Shown here: positions 3,552 to 45,200 of the stretch, piece after piece
Layout: the number at the start of each line of letters is the position of its first letter
Numbering within the stretch: position 1 is the first letter of the stretch
Position numbers and translations under genes: made by a program
The notes under the pieces: generated by a model
Told to the model about the DNA's origin: nothing
What the model saw: only the letters and a program-made list of their open reading frames with translations
Database searches by the model: none
Virus record (IMG/VR): IMGVR_UViG_3300028840_006732
Origin: a virus
Taxonomy: Duplodnaviria > Heunggongvirae > Uroviricota > Caudoviricetes
Length of the DNA stretch: 54,393 bases
Direction: 5' to 3' (one strand)

Positions 3552-3569
3552 CTCAAAACCGCTTTTGAG
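3552..3569. repeat. 18-bp palindrome CTCAAAACCGCTTTTGAG, copy 1 (intergenic)
   Basis: Read directly; 7-bp arms with 4-bp spacer; three further copies in the window. Confidence 0.95.
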
Positions 3570-3600
3570 ATCTGTCCCCAGACAGAAGGAGTAGTTTTCG

Positions 3601-4527
3601 ATGGCGAATGAACCCGTTCCTCAAGTAGCAAAGCGCGAGGGACTGCTCAAGGCGATGACCCCCGAGCTTCAGAAGGTCGCCAAGAGTGTTGAGAAGAAGC
3701 TGGCCACGGGCCGGCAGGGTTTGGTGCTGATTGCTTACGACATCGGTGCCATGGTCAAACGAGTGATCGACGACGAGCCCACCTACGGGGCCAAGGCCGT
3801 CGAGCAGTTGGCCGACTACCTCCAGAACAACGGCGGCACGACGGCACTGTACGCCCTCCGCGGTTTTGCCACCGAGTTCACCCGGGAATCGGTCAAGGCC
3901 GAGGTCGTCAAGCTGCGGGAAGACGGCCAGGCCCTGGAGACCGGCCACTTCCTGGCGATCTGCAAGGTGAAGTCGAAGAAAGAGCAGCGGAAGCTCTTCA
4001 ACCGTGTCCGCAACGAGTGCCTCTCGTCCAAGCAGTTGGAAGCCGAGATCAAGGCGTGTGTCGAGACCCGCAACACCCGCAGCAGCGGGCGCAAGCCGCA
4101 GCAGCCGAAGACCCCGGCTGCCGGTCTCCAGAAGCTCTACGGACAGGCCCAGCAGTTGGGCAACTACTTGTCGATCGTCAACGACAGCGTCTTCGAGCCG
4201 TTGCTGGAGGTCGCTCCCGACCAGGTCAACGTCAAGCTGGTCGGCAAGTTCCAGGAGGCTCGTGAACAGCTCACCCGGGTAGTCAAAGACGGCCAGGGTA
4301 CGTTGCTGCTGATGGGGCCGGTGGCCGAGCGTCTCAACAAGATCCTCGGGGGCGGCGACGGCGAGGCCGAAGCTGAGCCGGCAGGGCAGACTCCGCCCCG
4401 TAAGACGGCCAAGAAGAAGACCACGGCCAAAAAGGGTACCGGTCGTAAAACGGCCGCGACCAAAAAAGGCACCAAGAAGGTTGCGAGTAAGCCGGCCAAG
4501 AAGAAGAAGCGGCCGTCCCGGGTCTAA
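3601..4527 (+). CDS. DUF1016 (YhcG) N-terminal-like DNA-binding protein with Lys-rich C-terminal tail
   Basis: LIAYDIGAMVKRVIDDEPTYGAKAVEQLADYL resembles the YW.IG..I...YG...V..LA..L pattern of DUF1016_N. No nuclease domain follows. KKTAKKKTTAKK tail. Confidence 0.55.
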   Translation: MANEPVPQVAKREGLLKAMTPELQKVAKSVEKKLATGRQGLVLIAYDIGAMVKRVIDDEPTYGAKAVEQLADYLQNNGGTTALYALRGFATEFTRESVKAEVVKLREDGQALETGHFLAICKVKSKKEQRKLFNRVRNECLSSKQLEAEIKACVETRNTRSSGRKPQQPKTPAAGLQKLYGQAQQLGNYLSIVNDSVFEPLLEVAPDQVNVKLVGKFQEAREQLTRVVKDGQGTLLLMGPVAERLNKILGGGDGEAEAEPAGQTPPRKTAKKKTTAKKGTGRKTAATKKGTKKVASKPAKKKKRPSRV

Positions 4528-4550
4528 GCTAGGTCCCCGTGTCATGGAGG

Positions 4551-5366
4551 ATGGCCGTGATCTCGGTCAACGTGCTTCTCTATGGCGACTTCCCGAAGTT
4601 CGCCAAGCGGGTGCTCAGCTCCATCCGGGGCTACAAGCCCGGCGTGGTGCAGGACATCCGAGTAGGGATCAACAAGGTGTGCTCGGAGACGCGCGACTGG
4701 CTCTTTGAGTCCTTCGCGCCCGGGCAGCCTGTGCCCTGCTATGTCTATGAGCCGTCGCACAACGTGGGGAAGTATCCTCTCATGCGGCGGATGTTCTACG
4801 AGGAGCGCACTCTGGCTCCGCTGACGATGTGGCTGGATGACGACTCCTGGCTGGACAAGTTCATCGCCCAGGACTGGTGGGAGGAAGTGCAGCGGTCCAT
4901 GGTCACGGCGACGATGACCGGTGCGATCCACATCATCCGTCAACGAGGACGGCAGTTCGAGGGCGTCATGGCCCAGCCCTGGTACAACCAGGAGCCTGTC
5001 GGGCCGAAGCATACCTTCCGTTTCGCCACTGGAGCCTGGTGGGTGGCCAAGTCGGACTTCCTCACCGAGCACGACTATCCTTTCCCGGACATCTACCACA
5101 ACGGGGGAGACTCCATGCTGGGAGAGCTGCTCCGCCAGCAGCATGGCATCCTCAAGCCGTTCAGCCGCTGCTTCTGCCACTGCGAGTCTTGCAGTCGGAA
5201 GAAGCGGCCGGACCCGGCGGGCGTCGTCCACATCAACGAGGGTGGCCGGAAAGGAAGACGAGGGATAGGGGTAGTCGGCGAGCACTACGTGTGGCAGAAT
5301 GGCCCACCAGAGCATCCCGATCTGTCCAGGCACAACTTTTCGTGCCAGATTCACAGGTTCGAGTGA
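4551..5366 (+). CDS. GT-A fold (family 2-like) glycosyltransferase
   Basis: N-terminal beta strand VISVNVLLY, WLDDD (DxD) motif, later GGD motif. Confidence 0.65.
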   Translation: MAVISVNVLLYGDFPKFAKRVLSSIRGYKPGVVQDIRVGINKVCSETRDWLFESFAPGQPVPCYVYEPSHNVGKYPLMRRMFYEERTLAPLTMWLDDDSWLDKFIAQDWWEEVQRSMVTATMTGAIHIIRQRGRQFEGVMAQPWYNQEPVGPKHTFRFATGAWWVAKSDFLTEHDYPFPDIYHNGGDSMLGELLRQQHGILKPFSRCFCHCESCSRKKRPDPAGVVHINEGGRKGRRGIGVVGEHYVWQNGPPEHPDLSRHNFSCQIHRFE

Positions 5367-5375
5367 GGACCAGCC

Positions 5376-5813
5376 GTGCAGTACCGACCCCAGTTCATCG
5401 ACGTCAACGACCACCTGGAACGGCAAGAGCAGCCCGTGTTCCTTCTGGAACGGCCGCTGCTGCATGGCGACAAGCCCAAGGGAGGCTTGTTCAATGCTTC
5501 GGAGGTCGCCCGCAAGGGTACCTTTTGGACGCCCACCACGTCCCTGCTTGAGGGCAACATCGAGTGGTCCCTGGTTGACAAGGACCAGTACGTGCGGGTT
5601 CCGATCTTCGCGTACCGGACCGCCAGCAAGGCGGCTTCTCATATTGTCGGCCTGGCGTTCCAGTGCGGGATGCTAGTCCAGCAGGCGTTTAAGCTACATC
5701 GGCAACTGGACAAGATCCTGATTTGCCATCTCATCATCGGCCATGAGATCCACGAGCTGGAGGACGACGCCTTCCGGTTCTATCTCGGCCTGACCCTCCA
5801 GACGAAGGAGTAA
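5376..5813 (+). CDS. hypothetical protein
   Basis: 145 aa ORF (GTG start, GAGG upstream) filling the gap between neighbours. Confidence 0.65.
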   Translation: MQYRPQFIDVNDHLERQEQPVFLLERPLLHGDKPKGGLFNASEVARKGTFWTPTTSLLEGNIEWSLVDKDQYVRVPIFAYRTASKAASHIVGLAFQCGMLVQQAFKLHRQLDKILICHLIIGHEIHELEDDAFRFYLGLTLQTKE

Positions 5814-5815
5814 CC

Positions 5816-6301
5816 ATGAGCACCGGAACACCGCCCACGCCCCCGAAGAAGAAGCCTCGCGACGTCATCGACTTCTTCGACGTCATCGAGGACGAGCATC
5901 ATATCGGCAAGCGAGCAGCAGCCGGTTACCACCATTTGACCACAGCCCTCGGGCAATCGCAGGGCACAATGAAGAAGGTCCGGCGGAAGATTGGCATGCC
6001 GATCCTTCGCTACAGCGCCTCTGGCGGCAGCAAGGCCGTCGAGGTCGAGGCGGATCTGCGCAAGGTCCCGCCCGAGTACCTGTCGTATATTGTCTCTCCC
6101 CTGTGCAACCTCCACGCCGGGGAGATGCGAGAAGCTCTCGTTCGTATCCAGACTGCCGCTGCCACGGCCATCCAGCTCGTCGATCAGGCGATGCAGGCCC
6201 AGGCCGACGCCCAGCAGGGCCAGGAAGACTACGAGGAAGAGCAGGATTTCGAGGAAGACGACGAGGACGAGCTGGAGGAGGAAGAAGACGACGAGGAATA
6301 G
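5816..6301 (+). CDS. hypothetical protein with basic N-terminus (PPKKKPR) and acidic C-terminus
   Basis: 161 aa ORF with SD (AAGGAG) upstream. Confidence 0.7.
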   Translation: MSTGTPPTPPKKKPRDVIDFFDVIEDEHHIGKRAAAGYHHLTTALGQSQGTMKKVRRKIGMPILRYSASGGSKAVEVEADLRKVPPEYLSYIVSPLCNLHAGEMREALVRIQTAAATAIQLVDQAMQAQADAQQGQEDYEEEQDFEEDDEDELEEEEDDEE

Positions 6302-6303
6302 CC

Positions 6304-6933
6304 ATGTGCTCGAAGTCTGAAGTATTTGACTTCGATCAGTTAGACCCGGACGACGGGTTCACCGTGTTCCTCCACGAGCTGGGCCAGATCGAGGCAAGCA
6401 TTTGGCTTGGCTGGCGGGAACGGGGCCATCTCAAATATGGCGGCCCCGAGGAAAGTAAAGCCGTCGAGATCTGGCGGGCGGACCACCCGACCGCCGCGGA
6501 TCTCGGACGCCGAAGCCGGGCCCGCGTGCTTGCCGAGGCTGTCTGCCGCTACTTCACGGCCGGCGGAAACTGGGACGAGCTGCGGGCTCTTATCGACGAG
6601 ATGGCACGCCTCATCCCCGGGGGACTTGTCTTCCCCGGCTATCATCTCTTCGACACCTACACGGACGCAAAGGGACATGTCGTCTACGTCTACGTCCGGA
6701 CGGGCACGAACGAGGTGGTGCGGTGGGTTGCGCCGACAGGTGACGAGGCCGGTTTCATCGACCATATCACCCTGGAAGACTTGCAAAGAGAGGCGGAGGA
6801 AGGCGATGCCGCCGGATGCGAAGGCGACTTATCGTGTAGCCCTGCGCTACTCGGTTCCGACGATCTACAAGCTGCGGAGCCGCCTGATGACGACCCTCCG
6901 AGGTTTCCGGGGCCAGAGGGTCAAAGGGAATGA
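6304..6933 (+). CDS. hypothetical protein
   Basis: ATG at 6304 directly after the previous stop; C-terminus overlaps the next gene by 128 nt. Confidence 0.55.
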   Translation: MCSKSEVFDFDQLDPDDGFTVFLHELGQIEASIWLGWRERGHLKYGGPEESKAVEIWRADHPTAADLGRRSRARVLAEAVCRYFTAGGNWDELRALIDEMARLIPGGLVFPGYHLFDTYTDAKGHVVYVYVRTGTNEVVRWVAPTGDEAGFIDHITLEDLQREAEEGDAAGCEGDLSCSPALLGSDDLQAAEPPDDDPPRFPGPEGQRE

Positions 6934-7741
6934 GTTCGAGCGACTGGTCGACCTCGTCCACCACGACTTGCCTGGCAAGATGGACCGGGAGCCTGTCTAC
7001 GAGAGCCTGACTTCCCTGGCGGGGAATCTGCTCACCGTGGGCGTGCTCTGGGAAGTGGCTTGTCGTCTGGCCGGCAACGTGGAGCGGCTTCGCAGCCATG
7101 TCGTGCCGGTCTGGCGGAAACAGCATTTCGACGAGTGGGTTCCAGCTCAGGTCTCCTGGGTGCGGCTCAAGAAGGGCGGCAAGAAGGGCCGCGAGGTGGG
7201 TCACGATTTGGCCTTCGAGATCCTCGCAGGCACGCCAGCCGGCCACACCGCCAGGCAGTGGTGGTCCAAGCGGAAAAGCTACTACCTGGCCTACCATCGG
7301 GACAAGCAGGGCAACGGCTTCGCTTTCACCAGGCCCACACGGGCCGTGATTGGCGCTACTCCGTCCGCCTCGCCGTTCGAGGACCCCAAGCTCTTCACGA
7401 CGCTCCGCTGCCTGGTTCTCGTGGAGAAGGAGCGGAGCATCGAGGAGCCCGACTTTCGTGAGGTGGCCTTCTCGTCGGCGATGACCACCCACAATCGTCT
7501 CCAGCACAAGCGACGTGCGAGGCAGAAGAACATCTTCGAGTGCCCTGAAGGGTACGACGAGGACTATCCCTGCTTGGACTGTTGGGTGGGCTACGAGAAC
7601 TGCCCGGCAGCCGTCCACCCTTACGACTACCAGCGGCGGGAATGTCCCGGCTGCAAGAAAGAAACCTGGCACAATCCGGCGGCCCCGGGAAAGCTCTGCG
7701 TGGCCTGCACGGACGCCCTAGCTTTGAAGGATGACACATGA
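6806..7741 (+). CDS. hypothetical protein with Cys-rich, probably Zn-binding C-terminus
   Basis: ATG at 6806 behind GGAGGAAGG; C-terminal C..CxxC..C..CxxC..CxxC cluster. Confidence 0.65.
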   Translation: MPPDAKATYRVALRYSVPTIYKLRSRLMTTLRGFRGQRVKGNEFERLVDLVHHDLPGKMDREPVYESLTSLAGNLLTVGVLWEVACRLAGNVERLRSHVVPVWRKQHFDEWVPAQVSWVRLKKGGKKGREVGHDLAFEILAGTPAGHTARQWWSKRKSYYLAYHRDKQGNGFAFTRPTRAVIGATPSASPFEDPKLFTTLRCLVLVEKERSIEEPDFREVAFSSAMTTHNRLQHKRRARQKNIFECPEGYDEDYPCLDCWVGYENCPAAVHPYDYQRRECPGCKKETWHNPAAPGKLCVACTDALALKDDT

Positions 7742-8772
7742 AAAGAGAACGCTTCGTCACACCCAAGACCTACTTCTTCGGGTATCCTGAGCTGAACGAG
7801 TCCGAGGTGCGGCGCTACCTGGCTGACACCCAGAACGAGGATTTCCTCAAGAGTATGACGGCGGCCCGCGAAGCCGGCTTGTCGTCGGCGGAGATCCTCT
7901 GCTCGATCTTCGCCAAGCTCTGCTACAAGGCCCTTACGTTGGGTCAGAACGCCAACGTCACCCGAACCAGGGACATCGCCGACAACCTGGCCAACTGCTT
8001 CGACACCGGCCACGGCTCGATCTTCGAGCATGTGATGTTCAACTTCGTGGTCTCCGACTGCTCGCGGGTCTTCACCCACGAGCTGGTGAGGCACAGGGTG
8101 GGTGTGGCCTTCTCGCAGACCTCCGGCCGCTACTGCCGTCTGGATCACATCCCCATCATCTGGGACCCGATCCTCGATCCCGTCAAGGATATGTGGGACC
8201 ACCACTTGCAGAAGACCGAGGACCTGGTGTACCTCACCGAGTGCGCCCTCGGTCTCCGCGTGCCTACGCAGGAGCAGGAGGAGCGGGCCTACGCCCCCGA
8301 CTACTGGGTCAACTGTCGAGCGCATGCGGCTCCCGGCTGCGAGGACGACTCCAAGTGGGTCCCCAACGACAAGATGCCCTTTGCCCAGAAGAAGAAGCTC
8401 ACGTCGGCGATTAGACGGATTGCTCCCAACGGGCAGGCCAACGAGATCGCCGTGTCGCTGAACCTGAGGGCGCTGCGGCATACGATCCTCATGCGGACCA
8501 ACCGCGTGGCGGAGTGGGAGATCCGGTTGGTCTTCAACCAGATCTACCAGATGCTCAAGCCGCACTACCCGACCATCTTCCACGGGGCCAAGGAGACGAT
8601 GGTCGAGGGTCTCCTGGAGATCTCCGGGATGAAGTGTCAGCCGTACGAGAAGGCGGCCGACATGGTCCTCGACGAGATGTCCGATGACGAGCTGACGCTC
8701 TACATTCGGACGCGACCCAAGACCTGGAACAAGATTGCCGCGGAAGGTCAGTTTGTAGATGGAGTTATTTGA
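7738..8772 (+). CDS. thyX: FAD-dependent thymidylate synthase ThyX
   Basis: GHGSIFEH and THELVRHRVGVAFSQTSGRY (ThyX RHRx7S signature); later AEWEIR motif. Confidence 0.92.
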   Translation: MKRERFVTPKTYFFGYPELNESEVRRYLADTQNEDFLKSMTAAREAGLSSAEILCSIFAKLCYKALTLGQNANVTRTRDIADNLANCFDTGHGSIFEHVMFNFVVSDCSRVFTHELVRHRVGVAFSQTSGRYCRLDHIPIIWDPILDPVKDMWDHHLQKTEDLVYLTECALGLRVPTQEQEERAYAPDYWVNCRAHAAPGCEDDSKWVPNDKMPFAQKKKLTSAIRRIAPNGQANEIAVSLNLRALRHTILMRTNRVAEWEIRLVFNQIYQMLKPHYPTIFHGAKETMVEGLLEISGMKCQPYEKAADMVLDEMSDDELTLYIRTRPKTWNKIAAEGQFVDGVI

Positions 8773-9407: not shown

Positions 9408-9414
9408 GAGGCCC

Positions 9415-10221: not shown

Positions 10222-10229
10222 GGATTGAG

Positions 10230-10913: not shown

Positions 10914-10921
10914 GAGCATCC

Positions 10922-11158
10922 ATGAAGTTCGAGGTACAGAGCAAATGCGGCCGTGGCTGGACACAGCACGGCGACGTCGAGGCCGAGGACTCCATTGAGG
11001 CGGCCCGGAAGATCTTGCGAACGCATGGTCGTCGCATCCTCCGGGTTCGTCCTGCCTACTCTTTGGCCAAGTTTTTCGTCTACCGTTTTCCCAAGGCAGC
11101 GAAACCCCATGATATGTGTAAGGAGAACAAACGTGAGTATCCTTTTCAGCGTCAATAA
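10922..11158 (+). CDS. small hypothetical protein
   Basis: ATG 10922 with AGGAG SD; 78 aa. Confidence 0.55.
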   Translation: MKFEVQSKCGRGWTQHGDVEAEDSIEAARKILRTHGRRILRVRPAYSLAKFFVYRFPKAAKPHDMCKENKREYPFQRQ

Positions 11159-11639: not shown

Positions 11640-11649
11640 GGAGCAGTCA

Positions 11650-13576: not shown

Positions 13577-13594
13577 CTCAAAAGCGGTTTTGAG
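13577..13594. repeat. 18-bp palindrome CTCAAAAGCGGTTTTGAG, copy 2 (abuts the ATG at 13595)
   Basis: Read directly; exact reverse complement of copy 1. Confidence 0.95.
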
Positions 13595-14584
13595 ATGCCC
13601 AAGTTTCGTTACGAGCACAAGAGGATCGGCCCAGATCGGATGGAGATCATCGACCTGGCCAACGAGATCCTGGAAGAGTATGCCGCTCAGGGTTACGAGT
13701 TGACCTTGAGGCAGGTGTACTACCAATTCATCGCCCGCGACTGGTTCCCCCAGTCCTGGTTCGACGAGGACGCCAACACCAAGAATACGGAGAAGAACTA
13801 CAATCGGCTGGGCGCCACCCTCGTGACGGGTCGCCTGGCCGGCTTGATCGACTGGAAGCACCTGGTCGATCGCACCCGTAATCTTCAGAGCCTCACCCAC
13901 TGGGACGGCCCGGCCGACATCATCGAGACGGCCTCCAGGTGGTTCAATCTCGATCTGTGGGCTCGCCAGGACGTGCGGGTCCAGGTGTGGATCGAGAAAG
14001 ACGCCCTCCTGGGCGTCATCGAGGATGTCTGCACCAAAAACGACGTTCCGTACTTCTCCTGCCGCGGCTACACCTCCATGTCGGAGATGTGGGCCGCTGC
14101 CCAGCGGATCGTCAGCCACGTCAAGGACGGGAACGGGCAGGGAACGGTCATCCTCCACCTCGGCGATCACGACCCCTCCGGGGTCAACATGACCGAGGAC
14201 ATCGGCAAGCGGCTGAAGAAGCTGGTGGAGCCCCATGTGGGTGGCGCCAGGGTCTTCGTCGTCCACCGGATCGCGCTCACCTACGAGCAGGTCCAGCAGT
14301 ATAATCCGCCACCCCAGCCTGCCAAGAAGTCGGACAGCCGCTTCAAGCAGTACCAGGCGCAGACCGGTCTCGACGAGAGCTGGGAACTGGACGCCTTGGA
14401 GCCGGACGTACTCAATACTCTGATCCAGGACAACATCGACCACTTCCGCGACGAGAAGAAGTGGAAGAAGGGTCTGGAGGAAGAGAGGCATTATCGCGAT
14501 CAGCTTCTCCGGGCCTCCCTACACTGGGACAAGCTCAGCAAGAAGCTGAAGGTCAAAAAACCCGACGAGGAAGACGATGACTAG
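13595..14584 (+). CDS. Topoisomerase VI subunit A / Spo11-like protein (winged-helix Tyr + TOPRIM)
   Basis: TLRQVYY (Top6A T.R.lYY catalytic-Tyr motif), WIEKDA (TOPRIM Glu), LHLGDHDPSG (DxD). Confidence 0.75.
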   Translation: MPKFRYEHKRIGPDRMEIIDLANEILEEYAAQGYELTLRQVYYQFIARDWFPQSWFDEDANTKNTEKNYNRLGATLVTGRLAGLIDWKHLVDRTRNLQSLTHWDGPADIIETASRWFNLDLWARQDVRVQVWIEKDALLGVIEDVCTKNDVPYFSCRGYTSMSEMWAAAQRIVSHVKDGNGQGTVILHLGDHDPSGVNMTEDIGKRLKKLVEPHVGGARVFVVHRIALTYEQVQQYNPPPQPAKKSDSRFKQYQAQTGLDESWELDALEPDVLNTLIQDNIDHFRDEKKWKKGLEEERHYRDQLLRASLHWDKLSKKLKVKKPDEEDDD

Positions 14585-25870: not shown

Positions 25871-25909
25871 AAGGGAGGGGACTTCGCCGAAGTCCCCTTC
25901 CTTTTCTTT
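25871..25909 (+). terminator. intrinsic terminator
   Basis: GGGGACTTC-GCC-GAAGTCCCC stem followed by TTCCTTTTCTTT; flanking AAGGGA can extend the stem. Confidence 0.8.
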
Positions 25910-25967
25910 AGCCCATAGACAAAACTATTGGGGAAGGATTTCTCAAACCGCGAGAAGGAACTCGGTG

Positions 25968-27449
25968 ATGACCCAAGCCTCAGCGGCACCTTGGTGGGAC
26001 AATCCCGGGACCGACGACACTCCCGTCATCGCTCATACGCCCGACGAGACGCAATACTGGCATCCCGACGATCGCCAGATGGAGCGGATGCGAGGCGGTA
26101 TCACTTCGGGTGTCGTGATCCCCCGGGCCAACAACGACGGCACCTCGAAAGGCTTCTACGGACCCATGGCCGGAGTCGTCCACGTCGATCCCGACGCCCC
26201 GGACGGTGGGGCAGTGGTTGATCTATCCCAGGTCAATGACGGCCAGCTCTTCGATGCCTTCTCGCAGTCCGTCTACCCGCACCAGGTCTACTACAATCTT
26301 ACAAAGGAGGCCGGCGCCAGTCCGCCGGTCCCCGCGCAGGCCCCGGCTCCCGCGGAACGTCCGCGAGTCAACCCGCTGGTGCCTGATGGTTCCTATGTCG
26401 TGCCGGCGGCTCGTGACGACGGCACGCAGACTCTATTGCAAGGATCTCAACAGGTTCAGGAGGGACCCACCATGCCCATGCAACCCGTTCCCCCGCTTCC
26501 CGGCCAGCCGCAGGCCCCGGTGGCCCAGGCTTCGCCGCAGCAAGCTCCTCCGCAGCAGGCACCGCCCCAGCAGGCACCGCCCCAGCAGGCACCGCCCCAG
26601 CAGGCACCGCCCCAGCAGGCACCGCCCCAGCCGGTTCAGCCTGTGGCCCCGGCCCCGGCTCCCCAGCCGGCTCCCCAGCCGGCCGCCTGGCCCATGCAGC
26701 AGGTCCAGCAGCAGCCTCCCGTGGCGCCGCTGCCTCCCGCTCCCGACAACAACCAGCAGGTGCTGGCCGGGCTGAATCAGCTCACCAATGTGGTGGGCCA
26801 GCTTGTCAACACGATGGCCGGACAGCAGCCCCAGCCGGCCGTCCCGCCGGTAACGCACACCCAGCCGACGACGGCCAGCCCCACGCCGTTGCAGTCCCGG
26901 AGGGGCGACCCCAGGGCCACGCAAGCGATGCGTCCGGCTATGCAGCCTACTTCCCCCATGCCTGCTCCGCAGCCCATGCAGCGGGAAGACGACGAGGAGG
27001 ATTTCGAGCCCGCTCAAACGCTCCGGGAGATGGAAGTCGCCGCTCACCAGGAGACCCAGCACGGGGTGATTGTCGGCTTCGAGACGCTGGAGATGCCCTT
27101 CATTACGGGCCCTTTGCCTAAGAAGGCCAAGAAATCGGTTTTGTTCGAGATCCCCGGCAGTGGTACAATGTCAGCTCGATACCATGCCGTGTCGGATGGC
27201 GCAGATTGCCTTGCGCTGGTCTACGACACCCGGTACGAGGATGGAAACCAGTACCTCCCGCCCGACCTCGGCGACAAGCCGCTCGTGGTGACGTTGCCCA
27301 GGAGGGGGAAAGGCAAGCAGACTGCTCGCTACCTTTGCTCCTCGATGGGCCTGCACTTCACCGTGGGCGTTTTGGACATCGTGGTGCTCGTGAAGCATCA
27401 CGACCAGGAGGTCAACATCGAGGACGAGGACGAAGACGACGAGGATTAA
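25968..27449 (+). CDS. Pro/Gln-rich protein with folded N- and C-terminal parts
   Basis: About 493 aa; central low-complexity P/Q/A linker; acidic C-terminus. Confidence 0.75.
26526..26630 (+). repeat. 15-bp tandem repeat CAGGCACCGCCCCAG (QAPPQ): 5 perfect plus 2 degenerate copies
   Basis: Perfect units 26556-26630, degenerate units 26526-26555; in-frame coding. Confidence 0.95.
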
Positions 27450-32204: not shown

Positions 32205-32414
32205 ATGATCAACAAGGACAGGATCACGGAGATGGCGATCAAGGCGGCGGCGTATCGCTCGCCGGTCTTGGTTCCCCCTAAGCGAACCACGTCCCACTCT
32301 CGCACCATCAAGGTGCGGAAGAAGAAGAAGGACGAGAAAGAATCCCAGGAGGAGTTGCGGCGCTCCACCGGGAATGTTCAACCGCCGCATCGCTACGGAA
32401 GGAAAGTCCGATGA
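32205..32414 (+). CDS. small basic protein
   Basis: 69 aa, AAGGAGGT SD, KVRKKKK patch; ATGA-coupled to the tubulin gene. Confidence 0.65.
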   Translation: MINKDRITEMAIKAAAYRSPVLVPPKRTTSHSRTIKVRKKKKDEKESQEELRRSTGNVQPPHRYGRKVR

Positions 32415-33781
32415 GTTCCGTCCCTGGCTCCTCCGGCGAGTTCGGACCCAAGCCTAGACAGAAACCCAAGAAGCCCGCGCCCGATGCCGCCATGAAGAAG
32501 TCGTTGGCCGCAGCCAGCAAACCCATGGCACCGGTCCCGCCGATCGCTCCCGAGCCGCCCAAGCCTCCGAAGCCGCCCAAGCCGGCGGAGCCTCCGGCGA
32601 AGAAAGCGGATGACCCCGGAGACGTCGCGTCTCGCTGGGTGCCGGCGGCCCGCCGCCAGGCCTCCAAGACCATCCCGTACGTTGAGGACGACTTCGACTA
32701 CGACGTGGCGTTCGGTCTCTCCTTCGTTGGAGTCGGCCAGGGCGGCGGCCGGATGTCCAACAGCTTCTACGAGCTGGGCTACCGCCGGACGGCTGCCCTC
32801 AACACTACTGAGGCCGACTTCGACGGCCTGCCCGACGCCATGCAGAAGCACAGCTTCGACGTGGGCGGCGCCCGCAAGGACGCCCGTTTCGCTGCCGAGC
32901 AGGTGGACGGCCGCGAGGAGGAGATCTGGGAGCTGCTGACCCGGGCCTGGGGCAACACCTTCGACTACGGCCTGGTCTGCATCGGACTGGGCGGCGGCTC
33001 GGGCTCCGGCATGGGGCCGCAGGTCGTGCAGATCGCCCGCCAGTATATGGAGGACAAGGGATTGCCTCCTCGGGTAGGAGCCATCATCTCCCTGCCCACG
33101 ATGGCCGAGGGACAGCAGGTGGCCCGCAACGCCGTGCAGGCCTTCCAGGCTTTGCTGAAGATGGGCACTAGCCCCTTGATCGTGATCGACAACGCTCGCA
33201 TCCAGAGCGTCTACCGGCCGCCCATGGCCAAGCTCTACGGCACGGCCAATGACATGGTGAGCCAGTATCTCCACCTCTTCAACCGCCTCTGCGAAGCGCG
33301 GCAGGCCCAGATGACCTTCGATCGCTCCGAGTTCGCTCAGATCCTCGACAGCGGCATCGTGGTGATGGGGGCGGCCCCGGTGGGCACGGTCGATTCGATC
33401 GACAGCCCGGCCGACATCGCTCAGGCGATTCGTGAAGAGCTTACCAACAACGTGTTGGCGGAGGTCGACTTGCGGACGGGGCACGTGGGTGCCTGTCTGT
33501 TCGTGGCCAACGATGCCGCCCTGAACACGTTTGACTTGGAGTATTTCAACGCGGGGTTCTCGCAGCTCCGTCGTACCCTGGGCACCAAGAGCAAGGAGGA
33601 CCCCGTCCTGCACCGCGGCCTCTACGAAGGCAGCGGCGACGGCATTTCGGTCTACTCCATGATTGGTGGCCTTCAGCCCCCGGTGAAACGCTTGACGGCC
33701 CTGGCTCGCGAGGCCGGCCTCAACAAGCACGATTCCCCGTCCAAGATGGCCAGCTTCCTGGGCATCGACGACGCGGTTTAG
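32411..33781 (+). CDS. tubulin/FtsZ-family GTPase (PhuZ/TubZ-like) with Pro/Lys-rich N-terminal extension
   Basis: VGVGQGGGRM, LNTTEAD, GGARKD, GLGGGSGSG (tubulin signature), VIDN, ANDMV, T7-like FDRSEF. Confidence 0.9.
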   Translation: MSSVPGSSGEFGPKPRQKPKKPAPDAAMKKSLAAASKPMAPVPPIAPEPPKPPKPPKPAEPPAKKADDPGDVASRWVPAARRQASKTIPYVEDDFDYDVAFGLSFVGVGQGGGRMSNSFYELGYRRTAALNTTEADFDGLPDAMQKHSFDVGGARKDARFAAEQVDGREEEIWELLTRAWGNTFDYGLVCIGLGGGSGSGMGPQVVQIARQYMEDKGLPPRVGAIISLPTMAEGQQVARNAVQAFQALLKMGTSPLIVIDNARIQSVYRPPMAKLYGTANDMVSQYLHLFNRLCEARQAQMTFDRSEFAQILDSGIVVMGAAPVGTVDSIDSPADIAQAIREELTNNVLAEVDLRTGHVGACLFVANDAALNTFDLEYFNAGFSQLRRTLGTKSKEDPVLHRGLYEGSGDGISVYSMIGGLQPPVKRLTALAREAGLNKHDSPSKMASFLGIDDAV

Positions 33782-34539: not shown

Positions 34540-34829
34540 TGGATTGGGTCCTCGGCATAATCACGATCATTGCCCTCGAACTCACCCTGCGAAAGCGATG
34601 GGAGGGCTGGCTGCTGACCTTGTTCAATCAGTGTTTCTGGTTGTACTACATCTTCGTGACCATGCAGTGGGGCTTCCTACTAATCAATGCTGCCATGTGG
34701 GTGCAGAGCGTACGTGGGATCATCAAGTGGCGGAAGGACGACTGGGATGCACTTCCCGACGATCAGAAGGAGGTTCACCTGGCCGCGGCCCGGATTCGAG
34801 CGAAGCATCGGGGGACAGGTCGACGATGA
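34539..34829 (+). CDS. small multi-pass membrane protein, PnuC-like
   Basis: Three hydrophobic segments; W.GW....NQ.FW.YY...GF...N...W....G...W pattern. Confidence 0.55.
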   Translation: MDWVLGIITIIALELTLRKRWEGWLLTLFNQCFWLYYIFVTMQWGFLLINAAMWVQSVRGIIKWRKDDWDALPDDQKEVHLAAARIRAKHRGTGRR

Positions 34830-35026
34830 CAAAAGAGCCGGTTATTCTCCGCGATCCCATGACAGGCGAGCTGTTCGGCGCCGTAATGGACCCCGAGCGG
34901 CCCGACGAGATCCTGGGAGCCAACCGGATTACGCCTGATCCGTTCGCGAAACTCAGACAAGTCTTGATTCCCGGGGCGCTCAAGCATATCGCGGATAAGA
35001 TGGCGGAGAAGACGAAGAATGGTTGA
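34826..35026 (+). CDS. small hypothetical protein
   Basis: ATG 34826 in ATGA overlap; 66 aa. Confidence 0.5.
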   Translation: MTKEPVILRDPMTGELFGAVMDPERPDEILGANRITPDPFAKLRQVLIPGALKHIADKMAEKTKNG

Positions 35027-35381
35027 AGACTTCAAAACCGCTTTTGAGGTTCAACGGTTCCTCTACGACCAGGTCGGCTTCCGCAACTGCGGTCGTCCCG
35101 AGCTGGCCTTGGATGGGCTTCGTGAGCTGTTGCAGCTCGTGCTCAAGCGACAGGAGGCCCAGGGAGAGCGTGACCAGTGGGCGATGCTCACCTGTGACAT
35201 TGACGAGAAGCTCGGAGGCTACGACAATCCCTGGTACTGGTGGGTCTGGCACTGGCTGGGCCACGTCAACCTCGTGGGGCACGGTGGAAGTGTCAGCGGG
35301 TCATGGCTGACCAGCGAAGGTAAACGACTGCTGAGGGGCTTGGAGGCGTTTAGCAGCCGGGAGATTCTCGACGCACGATGA
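35019..35381 (+). CDS. hypothetical protein (HGGSV.G.WLT..G winged-helix-like ending)
   Basis: 120 aa; carries palindrome copy 3 in its first codons. Confidence 0.65.
   Translation: MVEDFKTAFEVQRFLYDQVGFRNCGRPELALDGLRELLQLVLKRQEAQGERDQWAMLTCDIDEKLGGYDNPWYWWVWHWLGHVNLVGHGGSVSGSWLTSEGKRLLRGLEAFSSREILDAR
35031..35048. repeat. palindrome copy 3, TTCAAAACCGCTTTTGAG (17/18 match, inside CDS)
   Basis: Read directly; encodes FKTAFE. Confidence 0.9.
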
Positions 35382-36900: not shown

Positions 36901-36959
36901 CCGTCGTCTCCGGGCGGCGGCACAATGCGCTTGGACATTGGAGCACAAGGAGGTGAGCC

Positions 36960-39111: not shown

Positions 39112-39208
39112 GTTTCATCCGGCTCAGGTCCTTACATCGTGGTGAGGCCCTCCGCCGGACCGGCCGGCGAGGGGCTTAGCTTCGCCCCGGTATGGCAAGG
39201 GAGTGCCG

Positions 39209-40243
39209 ATGAAATCCGTCCGAGTCACCGTACCTACGGTCTACAGATCAATCTTCATTGGAGACATCCACGTACCCTTTCACGACCACGTCGCCGTCAA
39301 GCTGCTGGTGGAGTTTCTCAAATGGTTCCAGCCGCAGCGGATCTACCTGATCGGCGACGTCGTCGACTTCTATCCTCTCTCGCGGTTCGACCGCGATCCG
39401 GCACGCATCGGAACGCTCCAGATCGAGCTGGACGAGTGCGTCGACCTGTTCACGGAGATCCGTGACATCTGTCCTCACGCGGAGATGTTCTTCCGCGAGG
39501 GCAACCACGAGAAACGGCTCACCCGCTACCTCTGGCAGCACGACGAGATCGAGTCGCTCCGCTGCCTGGACATCAAGGAGCTGCTCAACCTCGAAGAGCT
39601 GCACATCGAGCATATCGAGTACAACGGGCATCTCGACCACTACCGCAGCTTCCTCGTGGAGCACGGCGATCTCTGCCGCAAGCACAGCGGCTACACGGCC
39701 AGGGCCATGATGGAGAAGCGGCAGCTCTCCGGCATCTGCGGCCACACGCACCGGCTGGGCGCTCACTACCAGACCGATCACGCCGGGCAGAAGGTCTGGT
39801 ACGAGAACGGCTGCCTCTGCCGGCTCGACCCCGAGTACATCGTGGGCAAGCCGAACTGGCAGCAGGGCTTCACGATCGCTCACAACTGGGAGAACCGCTT
39901 CCAGGTGGAGCAGGTGCCCGTGATGCGCGGCAGGATCTTCTGCCACGGCCGGCTCTGGGAGGCCGTCGAGGAGGCCAAGCCGGAGAAGCAACCCCTGAAA
40001 CTCGTTGTTCCTGATCTTGACCCCGTTCCCAAGGCAAGTTCTACTCCACAGGAGAGTTCTACTGTTCAGAAGAAACCGGCGGGCCGCGTTCCGCCTCGTC
40101 GGTCCAGACAGAAGGGGAACAACAATGCCCTCAAACCCGACCCGCCGCAGCTTCCTCCAGACGGCGATGGGGAGCCTGGCAGCCGCCCTGGTCCCCTGGA
40201 CGGCCGAGGCGACGGAGACGACGACTTCCTCTCCGCCGATTGA
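39209..40243 (+). CDS. calcineurin-like metallophosphoesterase
   Basis: GDIH, GDVVD, GNHE, HGD and GHTHR motifs in order. Confidence 0.9.
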   Translation: MKSVRVTVPTVYRSIFIGDIHVPFHDHVAVKLLVEFLKWFQPQRIYLIGDVVDFYPLSRFDRDPARIGTLQIELDECVDLFTEIRDICPHAEMFFREGNHEKRLTRYLWQHDEIESLRCLDIKELLNLEELHIEHIEYNGHLDHYRSFLVEHGDLCRKHSGYTARAMMEKRQLSGICGHTHRLGAHYQTDHAGQKVWYENGCLCRLDPEYIVGKPNWQQGFTIAHNWENRFQVEQVPVMRGRIFCHGRLWEAVEEAKPEKQPLKLVVPDLDPVPKASSTPQESSTVQKKPAGRVPPRRSRQKGNNNALKPDPPQLPPDGDGEPGSRPGPLDGRGDGDDDFLSAD

Positions 40244-41126
40244 TCTCGACACGATCGAGGCGGAGCTGAAGAACCTCGACAAGCTCACGGCGATCCAGCA
40301 GGAGATGGTTTCCTACTGCACGTTCAACGTGCCCCGGAACATCGCCTTGGGAATCGTCGGCAGCAGCAACCTCTTGCTCTGCGAGGGGCTGTCGATGCGC
40401 TTTCCCATCAGCCCTGCGCAACTTCATCAGATGCCGCTGGAGATCTCGATCGCTCGTGTCGTGGGCACCGCGTCCAACGCGCACAAGTTCTACGAGACCT
40501 TCGGGAACATCACGCACACCGAGAAGATGATCATGGGGATCTCCTACCACGACGTCCCCTCGGTCAACCAGGTCCACGACGCCGGGCTGCGTCACAGCCT
40601 GGCGCATCTTCCCATGAAGAAGACGATGGCTTTCGTCCTGGACCGGCCCATCCTCACGCAGATCGGCATCCAGGCGGAGACCCCGGCGTGCAGGATCGAC
40701 TCCTTCGGAGACAACGACGGCAAGGACGTCGAGGTCCCGGAGTCGGCGAGGATGGCGATCGCCGAGAACGTCCACATGATGTGTCATCGGCCCCCGGTGT
40801 GGACGAACGACTACGACCCCGACAACATCCACCAGTTCTTCCGTACGATCCCCAGTGGGTTCGTCTACGACAACCTGGTCCGCCAGGCCAGGAATCGGCG
40901 GCTCTACCAGGACCACCGGGAGAGAGCCGCGGAAGAGGCCAGGGTCAAGGCCTACGCCGACAACAACAAGGACCTCTCCGCCTGGGAAGAGGCCAAGGTG
41001 GATCTCGACGATCCCAGCACCTATCCCGTGCCGGAAACAAGGAGGCACTTCGGCGATAACCCCGAGCCGCTGGCACCGAGGCCCAGCGACCCGCCCAAGA
41101 TCGGACCGAAGCCTCATCTCCTGTAA
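40125..41126 (+). CDS. exported protein with twin-arginine signal peptide
   Basis: MPSNPTRRSFLQTAMGSLAAALVPWTAEA: T-R-R-x-F-L, h-region, A-x-A site; AAGGGGA SD before ATG 40125. Confidence 0.75.
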   Translation: MPSNPTRRSFLQTAMGSLAAALVPWTAEATETTTSSPPIDLDTIEAELKNLDKLTAIQQEMVSYCTFNVPRNIALGIVGSSNLLLCEGLSMRFPISPAQLHQMPLEISIARVVGTASNAHKFYETFGNITHTEKMIMGISYHDVPSVNQVHDAGLRHSLAHLPMKKTMAFVLDRPILTQIGIQAETPACRIDSFGDNDGKDVEVPESARMAIAENVHMMCHRPPVWTNDYDPDNIHQFFRTIPSGFVYDNLVRQARNRRLYQDHRERAAEEARVKAYADNNKDLSAWEEAKVDLDDPSTYPVPETRRHFGDNPEPLAPRPSDPPKIGPKPHLL

Positions 41127-41551
41127 TGATTATCCGCATTACGAAAGACAGCCGGGGAATAGTGGCTGACTCCGACCTCCCCGGCTGTCCTCCGGTTGGA
41201 ATCGGCTATACTCCACACGAGGCGATCGGCATGTTGATCGCCCTGTTGGCCAGCGAGAACAAATGCTGGGCTGCTCACGGCGCCGACTTCATCATCGAGG
41301 ACAAGCGCGGCCAAATCTGCGAGTTCTGCGGCAAGAGCTTCCGCACCAAGAAGCAGCTAGGAGGGCATCTAAATTTCCAGCATCGCACGGTGGATTACAC
41401 CCGCCACGACATCTTTAGGGCGCTGGGGTACCGCCATGCGTCCAAGATGTCTCCCCGGCATAAACGAGATTTGTTCATCCTCTCCGGTATCTCGCGAACT
41501 GACGCCGAGAAGATGGCGGGGCTCAACAGCAAAGACTACCCGAAACAGTAG
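41126..41551 (+). CDS. HicB-like N-terminal domain fused to a classical C2H2 zinc finger
   Basis: IVADSDLPGC..GIGYTPHEA (HicB pattern); CEFCGKSFRTKKQLGGHLNFQH = C-x2-C-x3-F-x5-L-x2-H-x4-H. Confidence 0.65.
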   Translation: MIIRITKDSRGIVADSDLPGCPPVGIGYTPHEAIGMLIALLASENKCWAAHGADFIIEDKRGQICEFCGKSFRTKKQLGGHLNFQHRTVDYTRHDIFRALGYRHASKMSPRHKRDLFILSGISRTDAEKMAGLNSKDYPKQ

Positions 41552-41573
41552 GTCACTACCGAGGAGAACAGTC

Positions 41574-41864
41574 ATGAGTTGTGGAATACCGTGCAGCGGC
41601 TGCGGGGCGATGACGGACGAGGCCGACCTCGAATACTACACCGTGCACTGCGCCTGCCAGGCGGAGTCGCAGCTCCCCTGCGAGCACGGCTACTGCGAGG
41701 CCTGCATGAAGGAAGAGGAGCCCGACTTCAAGTCCCAGGTGATCGAGACCCTGGGCGAGTGCGTGGGCTTGCTCCCGGCCGGAGAGACGTGGGCGGCTAC
41801 GGAGGACGGGGTGCTGATGTACCTCAGGGACATCGTCAACCACGTCAATGCGAGCGAAGCATGA
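41574..41864 (+). CDS. small Cys-rich protein (partial RING-like)
   Basis: CSGC..., CAC, PCEHGYCEAC; GAGGAG SD. Confidence 0.6.
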   Translation: MSCGIPCSGCGAMTDEADLEYYTVHCACQAESQLPCEHGYCEACMKEEEPDFKSQVIETLGECVGLLPAGETWAATEDGVLMYLRDIVNHVNASEA

Positions 41865-42031
41865 GCACGGGATTCCCCGGACATAACCGCAAGCGCACGG
41901 CACAGAAGCGCCAAGATCCCAAGTGCGAGACGTGCAAGACCAGGCCCGCCTATCGCTGGTTCACCTGGTGCGGCTATATCTGCAAACCCTGCCTGGAAGA
42001 TCGCTTGCCCCGGAAGGCCCCGGCCGGGTAG
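41861..42031 (+). CDS. small CxxC-CxxC zinc-binding protein
   Basis: CETC...CKPC; ATGA overlap. Confidence 0.5.
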   Translation: MSTGFPGHNRKRTAQKRQDPKCETCKTRPAYRWFTWCGYICKPCLEDRLPRKAPAG

Positions 42032-42212
42032 GATAAAGCCACGGCTGATGACTAAAAGAAAGCACATGCGCAACCGCGCATAACACCTCTTCCGGTCATC
42101 TCGTAACATCCCGGCTGCACGGTAACATCCGCGGTGTTGTCGTGCGTCAGGAACGTGCACAGAACCAGGTCCCCCGGTACTGTGCAACGTCGTGGACATC
42201 AAGGAGGATGCT

Positions 42213-45200
42213 ATGACTCAGGGAATGGGTCTTGGGCTCGGAGGGATGCCCCCTTGGGGTCGGATGTTTCAGAACGCCGGCAGCTTCAGCGGCCGGTTCC
42301 CCATGGGAGGGTTTAGCTGGGGAGCTGTCCCCGGCATGGCACCAGGTAAGGCTCCTCCTAATCCTGCCGCTCAGGTCGCCCCACAGGGCCCTGTGAAGGC
42401 AGACGCGCAGGGTGTCCAGCAAGCCTTTGCCAAGCTGGGCGGCTGCGAGAAGCAGGCACAGGGCGTCTCAGAGGAAAATAGAGGCAGTCACACGTCGGGC
42501 CCGTCGAGACCGGTCTCTCCCAGCGCCGTTCTCACCGGAAGGCCTGGCCCCGGGCGTAGTGGAGCACCAGTTGGCTCGTCCACTACACTACCCCGGGGCC
42601 GGGCTGACGGGTCTAGTCTTCCTGGCTTGCCCAAGTTCGCGTCTGACGCGGAGATCCTTGCCGCTCTCCCCCGTCTGGGCGGCTTCCCCCTCTCTGGAAC
42701 CCGCACGGCCGCGGGCAAGGAGCACGAAAAACTAGCAGCGCAGGACAACACGGCTGCTCCCCCCTCGCTAGACCCGAAGGGGATAGCTGCGCTGACGGCA
42801 ATGAACGTCGGCGGGGGCGCGTTGGCCGGCAACAAAGTGGGCACGATGCTCGCCGAAAAACACACCCAACGCTGGCGGAATCTGGCGAATAGGGCCGCGA
42901 ACACTAGCTACGATCGTGGCCGGCACCAGGAGAGTCGCCTGCTGAATAACTTCACCCGCAACGGCAAGCTGCGGCAGATGTTCAAGCGTCTGCCGCGTCG
43001 GGGTCGTTGGATTGGTGGGGGCATCGGCGGCGGGCTTTCGTTGGCGTTGACGCTGTTGTTGCAGAAGCTCTCCGGCGGCAAGCCGACTGCCGACGCGGGG
43101 ACGACCAAGCCTACTGTTGACGCCCAAGGAAAGCCGATCACCAAGTCAGCGGCACAGGACAACACGGCTCCCCGGCTCTCCGCGACGGGGGATTCGAGCG
43201 GCCTGACGTTCGCCCACAAGAGCGATGACTACGCCCAGGGCCAGGACGCCTGGGGCTCGTTGCACAAGTATTTCAAGGGCGGCAGCAAGCTGCGTTCGCA
43301 GCCCTCGCCGCTGACCGGCAAGCACCGGGGAGAGGAGAAGGCCGTGCGCCAGATGAAGGCCGACTCCTTCCTCAAGGACGCATCGAACGGAGGCAAGGAG
43401 ATGGAGAAGGACGCCATCGCTTTCGAGGCCCTGCCGCCTGATTTCCAGGCCAGGTACCAGCGGAATTTTGCCTCTGGGCGGACGCAGATGTCGCCCCGGG
43501 AGGCGGCTGCCTACTACGCCAAGAACTACGAGACGCCGCAGCAGCGGGCGACTCGGTTTTCCTCCGAGCGTGCGCAGCAGTTGCGCACTACTCCGCAGCA
43601 GAAGTACGAGGCTGCGTTGGCCCGGGGAGACACGGGCATGGCCGACTACTACCGCTCCAAGATGAGTGGTGGCGGCCAGCAGTTTCTCGACCAGGCGAGG
43701 CAGCAGGCCAGCCAGGCTGCCGCCCGGATCGGCAAGCCGGCACAGCTTCCCAGCATGGGAGGTTTCTCCCGCAATCTCGACGCGGGTCCGCCCGCGATCA
43801 TCGGCTCCCAGGCCCCCGGTGGACAGAGGCCGCCTAAGCCGCCGTCCGTGGGTGGATTTCGTCCCCGGCGTCCGCCGGCCACTATGGGCCAGGCTCGCGG
43901 CATCCCCGGGATGCCCAAGCTGGGAGAGGATCTCTCGCCTTTCGCTCGCGGCTTCTTCGGCTGTTGCCTGGCCAAGGGCATGGACGAGGGCCAGGTCAAG
44001 CAGGCCATGGACGCAGCCATCGAGAGGTTCGGCAAGCTCGTGGAGGAGGATCTCAAAAGCGGTTTTGAGAAGTGTGCCTTCTTCGGGAAGGCCCGCGGTC
44101 TGCTCAACCGGGGGCTCCAGTGGGGCGCCCGCAAGCTCGCTCCCAAGGCGATGCAGGAGGGAGCCAGGCAGGCCGGGAAGGCCGCTCCGCAGGCGGCCAA
44201 GGTCGTTACCACGAAGGTCACTCCCTACTCCGCCTCGCGGGCCATGGTGCCCTACAGCGCCGAGTTCGCCGCCCGGCAGGCTGCTCGCCAGGGTGCGCGC
44301 AGGGGCACGCAGATGGCCACCAGGGCCGGCTTGCCCGCCGCCACCCAGGGAGGCAAGCTCGCTCTTCCCCGAGCCGTCAAGGGGCAGATCGGCAGCCGGC
44401 TGGGCCACGGCACGGCGACGGGAGTAGCCCAGGGTTTTGCCGAGCCTGCTTTGCTCAATCAACGCGATCCTGTCACCGGCGAGCCCACGATCTTCAGTTG
44501 GGGAGGCGCGGCTCGGGGCTTCGGTCTCGGTGCCCTTCTCGGCAAGAACCGGGCCGTCAGGAGCTGGTACGGTCGTCCCGTCACCCGTGCCGGTATCGCC
44601 TCGATCGGCGGTGAAGTTGCCGACACGGGGCTCGGCGCCATGGGCATCGACACCGGCGGCCGACTTCGCCAGGCTGCGGCCTGGGGAGCCGGCGGCCTGA
44701 GCACGCCGTGGGGTCGTCGCATGATGGGAACGGCCGCTCCCAAAGTCCTCAGCGGCATCGACGACTTCGCTATCCCCAGGCTCCTGCCGCAGGGCGCTCA
44801 GGGTGCTTGGGGCCGTGGGGCACGCGGTCTGGGTCGTGGCATGAGCAATCTCACCGGTGGCCGCATGGGCAAGGGCCTGATGCGTCACGGGGAGCGGATG
44901 ATACGTCCCGAGAGCGCTGCCTCGAAGTGGGGCCGGCGTACGTTGGGCGGCTCCATGGCCCTGGCCGGTGGAACGGCCTTTGCCGGAGCCACGATGGACA
45001 ATCTCCGTGCCCAGATCGGCGACGAGATGACCATGCAGTTCCAGCAGCAAGCCCCCGCCATGATCAAGCAGCTCACCGGGAAGACGCCCGAGGAGCTGCA
45101 AGCGATCCTCGCCCAGGCCGACTCGATGGGGCAGATCGGCAACGTCCTCGGCGGCATGGAGGGGATCTTCGACAAGATCCTCGGCTTCTTCAATGCCGAC

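Follow-up and report, generated by a model that had tools for sequence, protein, structure and literature searches.

A dispersed 18-bp palindrome in an uncultured jumbo phage and its probable reader, a protein with a predicted ParB/Noc-type helix-turn-helix

KorB is a ParB-family protein that acts as a global regulator and centromere-binding protein, with 12 OB operators (TTTAGCSGCTAAA) on the IncP plasmid RK2. The linear plasmid-prophage N15 carries four SopB-binding inverted repeats, which are scattered over the genome as centromere sites. In Bacillus subtilis the comparable pairs are Noc with its Noc-binding site (NBS, ATTTCCCGGGAAAT) and ParB/Spo0J with parS, and among phages they are the conserved inverted repeats (CIRs) of the Streptomyces phage phiC31 and the stoperators of mycobacteriophage L5. 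The element described here is an 18-bp palindrome, CTCAAAA-SSSS-TTTTGAG, which is dispersed over a 54,393-nt stretch of DNA from a Caudoviricetes virus (IMG/VR record IMGVR_UViG_3300028840_006732; the whole stretch is called the window). It is probably a duplex-DNA box that is recognised by a homodimeric phage protein with a ParB/Noc-type helix-turn-helix (HTH), the 308-amino-acid product of the gene at 3601-4527.

The likeness to KorB and OB consists of a ParB-type HTH dimer, predicted in the phage, paired with a short palindrome whose central base is degenerate, and of sites that lie every few kb over the whole replicon, some at promoters and some far from them. KorB is also one protein for regulation and DNA handling, as the phage protein may be. 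However, KorB has an N-terminal CTPase domain and the partners KorA and IncC, neither of which is detectable for the phage protein, and the replicon here is a phage genome of ~236 kb with sites between stop and start codons or inside genes. The DNA-binding domains of Noc and ParB/Spo0J are the best structural matches (6y93, 6s6h, 7bnk, 4umk), and their sites are likewise dispersed palindromes (14-16 bp) with A/T-rich arms and a CG-rich centre that are tolerated inside genes. The motif of the related phage G002 (AAAATCCGGAATTT) resembles the NBS (labels with G are IMG/VR records of related phages, and labels with L are loci). In contrast to Noc and ParB, the protein is phage-encoded, no CTPase/spreading domain or membrane-targeting helix was detected in it, its sequence similarity is marginal, and its modelled dimer interface is different. 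N15 resembles this phage in having a few identical palindromes far apart in a phage genome; its reader, SopB, is a ParB-family protein (3mkw and 3mkz are among the fold matches). However, it has four sites and the SopA ATPase, whereas at least 11 sites and no ParA adjoining the reader were seen here. The phiC31 CIRs and L5 stoperators are many copies of a short operator in short intergenic gaps beside stop and start codons, and the one phage regulator that serves them also targets its own gene. These are, however, temperate-phage repressor systems with unrelated repressor folds, and the L5 stoperators are asymmetric and keep a single orientation. Judged by its predicted domains and neighbours, the system is not a canonical ParB, with the CTPase domain absent and no ParA adjacent.

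The window contains four copies of the palindrome, at 3552-3569, 13577-13594, 35031-35048 (with T at position 1) and 44052-44069, exactly at the positions and in the orientations given in the original prediction. The chance expectation is 0.01, and none of 100 dinucleotide-preserving shuffles reaches four copies. The half-site TTTTGAG occurs four times in the window, each time within the 18-bp motif, and CTCAAAA also occurs four times, three of them within the motif. Along the window the centre reads CCGC, GCGG, CCGC and GCGG; all plausible genes lie on the plus strand, and the G+C content is 59-67%. The window comes from within a metagenome contig of 236,137 bp in ENA, and the same phage was assembled from four other samples. 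The contig was walked by exact-protein look-ups, which gave a merged stretch of 139.4 kb with 11 copies, seven of them outside the window. The motif is the most repeated 12-mer in 120 kb of merged sequence. Sixteen of the 18 positions are invariant among the 11 copies, and the centre is CCGC in five and GCGG in six; it is always asymmetric (11/11), never CCGG or GCGC. The arms vary in just two copies, where C1 on the coding strand is replaced by T. The flanks lengthen the dyad, with A at -2 in 10 of the 11 copies and a pyrimidine at -1 and a purine at +1 in all of them, giving the 22-bp form A-Y-CTCAAAA-SCGS-TTTTGAG-R-W.

Eight of the 11 copies are intergenic although intergenic DNA makes up 4% of the sequence (p 1e-9). 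At these eight the box forms most or all of the spacer and begins 1-7 nt past the stop codon (3 nt at L212). Four of them have a start codon 0-2 nt past the box without a Shine-Dalgarno sequence, and the remaining ones have a Shine-Dalgarno sequence and then a start 11-31 nt past the box. In the window, copy 1 (CTCAAAACCGCTTTTGAG, 3552-3569) lies 2 nt past the TAG of the gene at 2971-3549, and the ATG of the ParB-HTH-like gene follows it after 31 nt. Copy 2 (CTCAAAAGCGGTTTTGAG, 13577-13594) lies 2 nt past a TGA and is immediately followed by the start codon (ATG) of the Top6A-like gene at 13595-14584, which has no Shine-Dalgarno sequence. Two intergenic and two intragenic copies had been proposed for the window, and this stands for copy 4 (CTCAAAAGCGGTTTTGAG, 44052-44069), which is in frame (L K S G F E) within a 1131-amino-acid open reading frame (ORF) at 42192-45587. 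It does not stand as firmly for copy 3 (TTCAAAACCGCTTTTGAG, 35031-35048), which starts 4 nt past the TGA of the gene at 34544-35026. This copy counts as coding only on the condition that translation of the ORF at 35019-35381 begins with the ATG at 35019; it would then span codons 5-10 (F K T A F E). Counting copy 3, three of the four window copies are at gene junctions. In the longer stretch three of the 11 copies are inside genes, and all read (L/F)-K-(T/S)-(A/G)-F-E with AAA, TTT and GCT or GGT. The codons concerned are rare, as had been claimed, since AAA accounts for 14% of Lys, TTT for 16% of Phe, GCT for 15% of Ala and GGT for 16% of Gly codons (14-16% of their families).

Neighbouring copies are 6.6-21.5 kb apart and over-dispersed (p 0.002 for a coefficient of variation [CV] of 0.40, and p 0.0009 for the smallest gap). 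The idea of a fixed 10-kb period from which some sites are missing was rejected because the gap from the SbcD site to the reader-gene site is ~19 kb in the relative G003 too (19.8 kb here); the positions thus look inherited rather than set by a ruler, and over-dispersion alone is claimed. The orientation of neighbouring copies alternates in 9 of 10 pairs (p 0.011, post hoc), an alternation that G002 lacks, and the centre occurs in both orientations while nearly all genes share one strand. A link between orientation and start-codon distance was also considered. It gave a perfect split at seven intergenic sites (GCGG with ATG at 0-2 nt, CCGC with its own Shine-Dalgarno sequence), was broken by the eighth (one-sided p ~0.07, a Mann-Whitney estimate made by hand), and is not claimed.

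The candidate reader is encoded on the plus strand at 3601-4527 and consists of a predicted DUF1016_N/ParB-type HTH region, long dimerising helices, a GGRKP arm and a Lys-rich tail ending in RPSRV. Pfam gives 30 bits for DUF1016_N (cut-off 32.8) and 17.4 bits for HTH_ParB (cut-off 22.6). The family comprises ~600 proteins, and among 68 that were aligned DUF1016_N is found in 55 and HTH_ParB in 18 (best E 3.4e-6). The AlphaFold model of the protein has a predicted local distance difference test score (pLDDT) of 87.6. When it was compared with the PDB by Foldseek, the top 20 matches were all DNA-binding domains of ParB, Noc, Spo0J or SopB (probability 0.69-1.0, template modelling [TM] score by target at most 0.71, E 0.02-0.35). 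The homodimer model scored 0.73 against 0.00 for the best of three controls; its runs share at least 83% of contacts, and the partner pLDDT is at least 81. The mark used was reached by 20 of 30 proteins solved as one-chain pairs and by 1 of 23 solved as single chains, counts that are rough since the authors' own alignment was used. ParB-family dimers are already solved, so the homodimer pass may partly reflect likeness to known structures. The modelled interface is formed by the long N-terminal helices and the C-terminal coiled coil. The HTH is followed by the near-invariant GGRKP arm, the coiled coil and a Lys-rich disordered tail with a conserved RP(A/S)xV end. No Pfam match was found for a DUF1016/YhcG-like C-terminal PDDEXK nuclease domain, and the C-terminal half is coiled coil and disordered Lys-rich tail.

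The 192-amino-acid gene at 2971-3549 (plus strand, no assigned function) precedes the site and the reader gene in a conserved order, and its orthologues lie directly upstream of the reader in G002 and G003 (tblastn). A local motif is found at this junction in L234, G003, G002 (degenerate) and G005 as well. All 10 further relatives searched have a homologue of the reader, and in 13 of 15 phages a palindrome of 14-24 bp (arms of 7-12 bp) lies at most ~110 nt upstream of the orthologue. A palindrome of about 16 bp beside or within the operon of its own gene is a trait of the ParB family, and this phage shows it with the box 31 nt upstream of the reader's start. In L234, whose protein is 50% identical, the upstream palindrome is CTCAAAACCACTTTTGAG. 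Upstream of the reader, this phage, G003 and G004 each have the motif that is dispersed over their own genome, and G002 has a degenerate copy of its dispersed motif. In G007 the upstream palindrome is also the one perfect copy, and in the complete genomes G009 and G014 the upstream palindrome is essentially the sole copy. The residues in the HTH region sort into two sets in step with the box types CTNAAAA... and AAATTC..., a correspondence that is confounded with phylogeny. The DUF1016-like protein at 3601 had been named as one of two possible binders, and it is the best candidate by its predicted ParB/Noc HTH fold and homodimer and its upstream palindrome. The Top6A-like protein (13595), named alongside it, was rejected because it has no homologue in the 98%-complete G003, which has 23 sites. 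Proteins resembling the carboxy-terminal domain of the RNA polymerase alpha subunit (alpha-CTD) and GerE were rejected as readers because their genes are not consistently beside sites. The phage does encode a stand-alone alpha-CTD-like protein (PF03118, 36.5 bits; L119:8120-8464), which is kept in relatives, and a 76-amino-acid GerE/sigma-70 region 4 protein (L118:17636-17866).

Related uncultured jumbo phages, with 53-64% identity in the large terminase subunit (TerL), carry dispersed palindromes of their own. The closest cultured-phage match of TerL is only 28% identical, and no nucleotide match was found; many relatives have TerL at 60-79% identity, and IMG/VR gave 28 loci. G003 (219 kb, 98% complete, TerL 59%) has 23 copies of CTAAAAAACGTTTTTTAG, extended by ATTC...GAAT, with a mean gap of 9.6 kb and over-dispersed spacing (p 0.0003 by CV and 0.0002 by smallest gap). 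G002 (78 kb, TerL 62%) has about 9 copies of YAAAATCCGGAATTTR in both orientations, G004 (116 kb, TerL 63%) has 7 copies of TAAATAGTRCTATTTA, and G007 (202 kb, TerL 53%) has 10 copies of CTAAAAAGTACTTTTTAG. G001 (IMGVR_UViG_3300047585_000208, L149-L155; 138 kb, TerL 44%) has 54 copies of TGAGTAAYGCRTTACTCA, nearly all just 5' of a ribosome-binding site and two directly after canonical terminators; their centre is TGCA, TGCG or CGCA, never CGCG. The pattern AAAANCGNTTTT has few matches in ten relatives, whose boxes are spaced differently.

The comparison with G003 shows that sites are kept in place. The two phages are collinear, with PolA ~48% and TerL 59% identical, and the anatomy in G003 is the same as here, namely stop, 3 nt, box, 2 nt and ATG; the base after the box is a purine in 23 of 23 G003 copies. 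The G003 box, CTAAAAAA-CG-TTTTTTAG, and the box of this phage, CTCAAAAC-CG-CTTTTGAG, are equal at 14 of 18 positions and plainly homologous. Their differences are a symmetric change at positions 3 and 16 (C:G in this phage, A:T in G003) and further changes at positions 8 and 11. Three sites are shared: the junction of the 192- and 308-amino-acid genes; a position just upstream of an SbcD/Mre11-like gene, whose ATG is 2 nt past the box in both phages; and the same variable linker, in the same frame, of an InPase-domain gene. At the last site the codons are CTC AAA ACC GCT TTT GAG (LKTAFE) here and CTA AAA AAC GTT TTT GAA (LKNVFE) in G003. Three shared positions, each with the box of its own genome, indicate that the sites are old, kept in place and rewritten when the box changes. 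Such rewriting is the behaviour that targets of a co-evolving reader would display. The site after a DUF1360 gene is not conserved, with a remnant in L120 alone and none in other relatives, so sites are also gained and lost.

The proposal that it is the DNA that is under selection here, not the protein, is supported, given the rare codons at the coding copies and an intragenic site that is kept in a relative with that relative's own motif. The conservation test that had been called for at coding copies was answered at one of them, in the InPase gene, where each genome keeps its own box and not fixed nucleotides. No homologues were found of the 1131-amino-acid protein (42192-45587), which were sought for a synonymous-site test of copy 4. 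A protein site also fits better than a simple hairpin, again as suggested at the outset. Both orientations of the centre, the in-frame copies with rare codons and a G002 motif that is unable to form a stable hairpin, with an A.A mismatch inside it, all support a box that is read as DNA. The recombination core that had been offered as the other choice found no support, as the orientation is the same in all five assemblies and relatives have symmetric centres; flip-flop inversion was rejected on the orientation.

These findings suggest how the system may work. The box directly upstream of the reader gene would be the ancestral position, most likely for self-regulation, and in the simplest history the operator of a self-regulating protein would have been multiplied along the genome in some lineages. 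In this lineage the box may have spread to ~1 site per 10-13 kb or, by extrapolation, some 18-20 sites in the whole genome. Dimers bound there would be markers at intervals along the DNA, and the Lys-rich tails and the conserved C-terminal peptide hint at non-specific contacts with DNA and at a docking partner. The array may consist of KorB-like roadblocks or operators between transcription units, which would fit the junction positions and a decayed copy behind a terminator. Alternatively, it may serve Noc/ParB-like anchoring or compaction, which would fit the even spacing, the kept intragenic sites and a polycationic tail whose tip looks suited to docking. A bolder version, to which we give an outside chance, holds that sites and protein make up a new kind of system for organising a phage chromosome. 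In it a CTPase-less ParB-fold adaptor bound about every 10 kb would use its Lys-rich linker and conserved RPxxV peptide to tether or compact the DNA against a partner, for instance the phage tubulin or a replication/packaging compartment, as the dispersed centromere array of a jumbo phage. What the analysis shows is the sites with their anatomy and spacing, their kept positions with symmetric changes in both arms, the association of the box with the reader gene, and the predicted fold and dimer of the protein; actual binding and the function of the array are inferred.

Several points weigh against a box read by the 308-amino-acid protein. Its Pfam scores are below the curated cut-offs, and its Foldseek E-values are 0.02-0.1. 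ParBc, the N-terminal ParB/Srx CTPase domain with the GERR box, had no Pfam match at E<=0.01 in this protein or 68 relatives. No ParA-like partner adjoins the reader, as the neighbours at 2971-3549, 4566-5366, 5376-5813 and 5816-6301 and two more are without a Pfam match; this result covers neighbours only. A homodimer does not account for the asymmetric CCGC/GCGG centre in 11 of 11 copies, and G001 has a reader homologue without an upstream palindrome and a different 54-copy palindrome. The concentration of eight of the 11 sites in the 4% of intergenic DNA, four of them abutting a start without a Shine-Dalgarno sequence, could reflect an RNA-level role in expression, and the mRNA strand retains a U.G pair in both C1-to-T variants. 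The latter points would suit a transcribed hairpin that punctuates polycistronic mRNA by processing, stabilisation or stop-start coupling, the more so as the copies lie 1-7 nt past the stop, the G003 anatomy is alike and the hairpin folds with -6.3 to -8.5 kcal/mol. We consider this element unlikely, since the core hairpin is weak (z-score -1.0 at 13577), the loop varies (CCGC or GCGG) yet the other bases are otherwise invariant, the G002 version with its mismatch would not fold, and four one-mismatch G001 variants break the outer pair on the coding strand. It also leaves the kept intragenic sites and the near-universal link to the HTH gene unexplained.

The start codons 0-2 nt past the box and the purine after it in all copies here and in G003 raise a further explanation, a promoter of a phage-encoded RNA polymerase, possibly read as an extruded hairpin like the early promoters of phage N4, from which transcription would start right after the box to give leaderless or short-leader mRNAs. 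In N4-type promoters the virion RNA polymerase reads a template-strand hairpin and starts ~11 nt away from the centre of its loop; in four copies the box centre is 9.5-11.5 nt before the ATG, which is compatible with this geometry. Neither sigma-70-type promoters nor intrinsic terminators show enrichment, canonical terminators immediately precede the decayed window copy and two G001 sites, and spacing of 3-20 kb suits transcription units. Such a promoter is nevertheless decidedly unlikely: a dyad kept across the clade is needless for a one-way promoter, both centre orientations occur on a one-strand genome, three of the 11 copies are inside genes, one of them at a conserved position, and essentially one copy upstream of the HTH gene in G009 and G014 suits an operator better than a promoter class. 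The original prediction had also suggested anchoring to the tubulin encoded in the window. A centromere array that couples the genome to this tubulin (32411-33781), with the 308-amino-acid protein or a 69-amino-acid basic protein at 32205 as adaptor, draws on the ability of ParB-type folds to bind centromeres, on the presence of the tubulin in G002 and G003 (53-55% identity) and on the reader's Lys-rich linker with a conserved RP(A/S)xV tip resembling a docking peptide. However, the tubulin gene is 29 kb from the reader gene and adjoins no site, and known TubZRC systems use clustered iterons beside tubR, not dispersed palindromes, which makes this coupling very unlikely. Identical copies in both orientations that stand as units between genes, and the absence of the DUF1360-gene site from most relatives, would also be expected of a selfish or recombination element without a phage function, either a transposase-spread palindrome of the repetitive extragenic palindromic (REP) type or a crossover site for module exchange. 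Over-dispersed spacing in two genomes, the same orientation in five assemblies and three positions kept between phages with core-protein identities of ~48-59%, at which each genome's own version of the motif is found, make it highly improbable. No transposase turned up in the parts examined, where no search was aimed at transposases. As for features of REP sequences and their REPIN doublets, the sites are single, evenly spaced and kept in position at three places, and no search was aimed at a REP-associated tyrosine (RAYT/Y1) transposase.

Further origins of the motif were tried and rejected. The exact 18-mer was found in 55 stretches of 185,579 bacterial genomes (596 Gb), nearly all of them single copies, with no enrichment in any Planctomycetota genome in this set, which rules out a host-derived repeat. 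The motif is specific to the phage, with 11 copies in 139 kb and enrichment in none of these bacterial genomes. Paenarthrobacter sp. Z7-10 (L162, L164, L174) has four exact 18-mers on three scaffolds; other genomes have single copies. A metagenome scan with CTCAAAASCGSTTTTGAG gave at least 104 stretches, each with one copy in unrelated DNA and with centre types in chance proportions, and no relatives among the matches listed; the IMG/VR scan with the exact 18-mer gave two chance matches. These scans speak against a common repeat of metagenomes. An intrinsic terminator was rejected because the stem has 2 G-C pairs in 7, no T run follows and the terminator scan did not list the sites. Terminator-like and sigma-70-like matches were at chance level in the region scans. 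Restriction avoidance does not explain the asymmetric centre, since ACCGGT (32 copies) and AGCGCT (25 copies) are not avoided. Such avoidance is otherwise very strong in this phage, as 29 of 64 six-base palindromes are wholly absent from 120 kb (the window and flanking loci), with observed/expected counts of 0/70 for CTCGAG, 0/65 for GAGCTC, 0/61 for CAGCTG, 0/42 for GGATCC, 0/34 for ATCGAT, 0/33 for CTGCAG and 0/29 for AAGCTT. GAATGC/GCATTC is absent too, and GCCGGC, CGGCCG and ACCGGT occur at the expected frequency in the same 120 kb.

A shortened variant had been suspected at 25942-25954, and it is plausibly a decayed copy. This element (CTCAAACCGCGAG with the flank AAGGAAC, 25942-25961) lies between a terminator hairpin (~25876-25910) and the GTG at 25965, with a canonical terminator on one side and a ribosome-binding site on the other. 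The full copy at L119:3373 has the identical AAGGAAC flank. The terminator at 25876-25910 (GGGGACTTCGCCGAAGTCCCC followed by a T-rich run) is among the few clear terminators noticed in the region. The ORF that follows (25965-27449) contains a 15-nt unit, GCAGGCACCGCCCCA, five times in tandem at ~26526-26600. At L212:17671-17692 (minus strand) a perfect 16-bp palindrome, ATTCCCGATCGGGAAT, comes right after one motif copy and before the next start. The window differs from the ENA contig ERZ27256798 k141_2288034 by a 27-nt indel (a 638- versus a 647-amino-acid gene upstream of window position 1427) and by ~72 nt further on, which points to strain-level variants of the phage. Several TerL relatives (P0143, P0185, P0197, P0206 and P0220) are 800-1130 amino acids long with intein/LAGLIDADG domains (PF14528, PF14890).

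Jumbo phages of uncultured lineages are almost wholly unannotated, and in this case a DNA signal and its probable reader were paired from sequence alone. The pair is kept across a whole clade of phages of roughly 200 kb, and the box sequence is particular to each phage; this offers a natural series in which to follow the joint change of specificity in a ParB-type fold and its site. Through the pair it also becomes testable how phages of this kind control or physically arrange a genome of a quarter of a megabase in the absence of host-type promoters. Should the array turn out to be structural rather than regulatory, it would represent a new type of phage centromere or nucleoid system.

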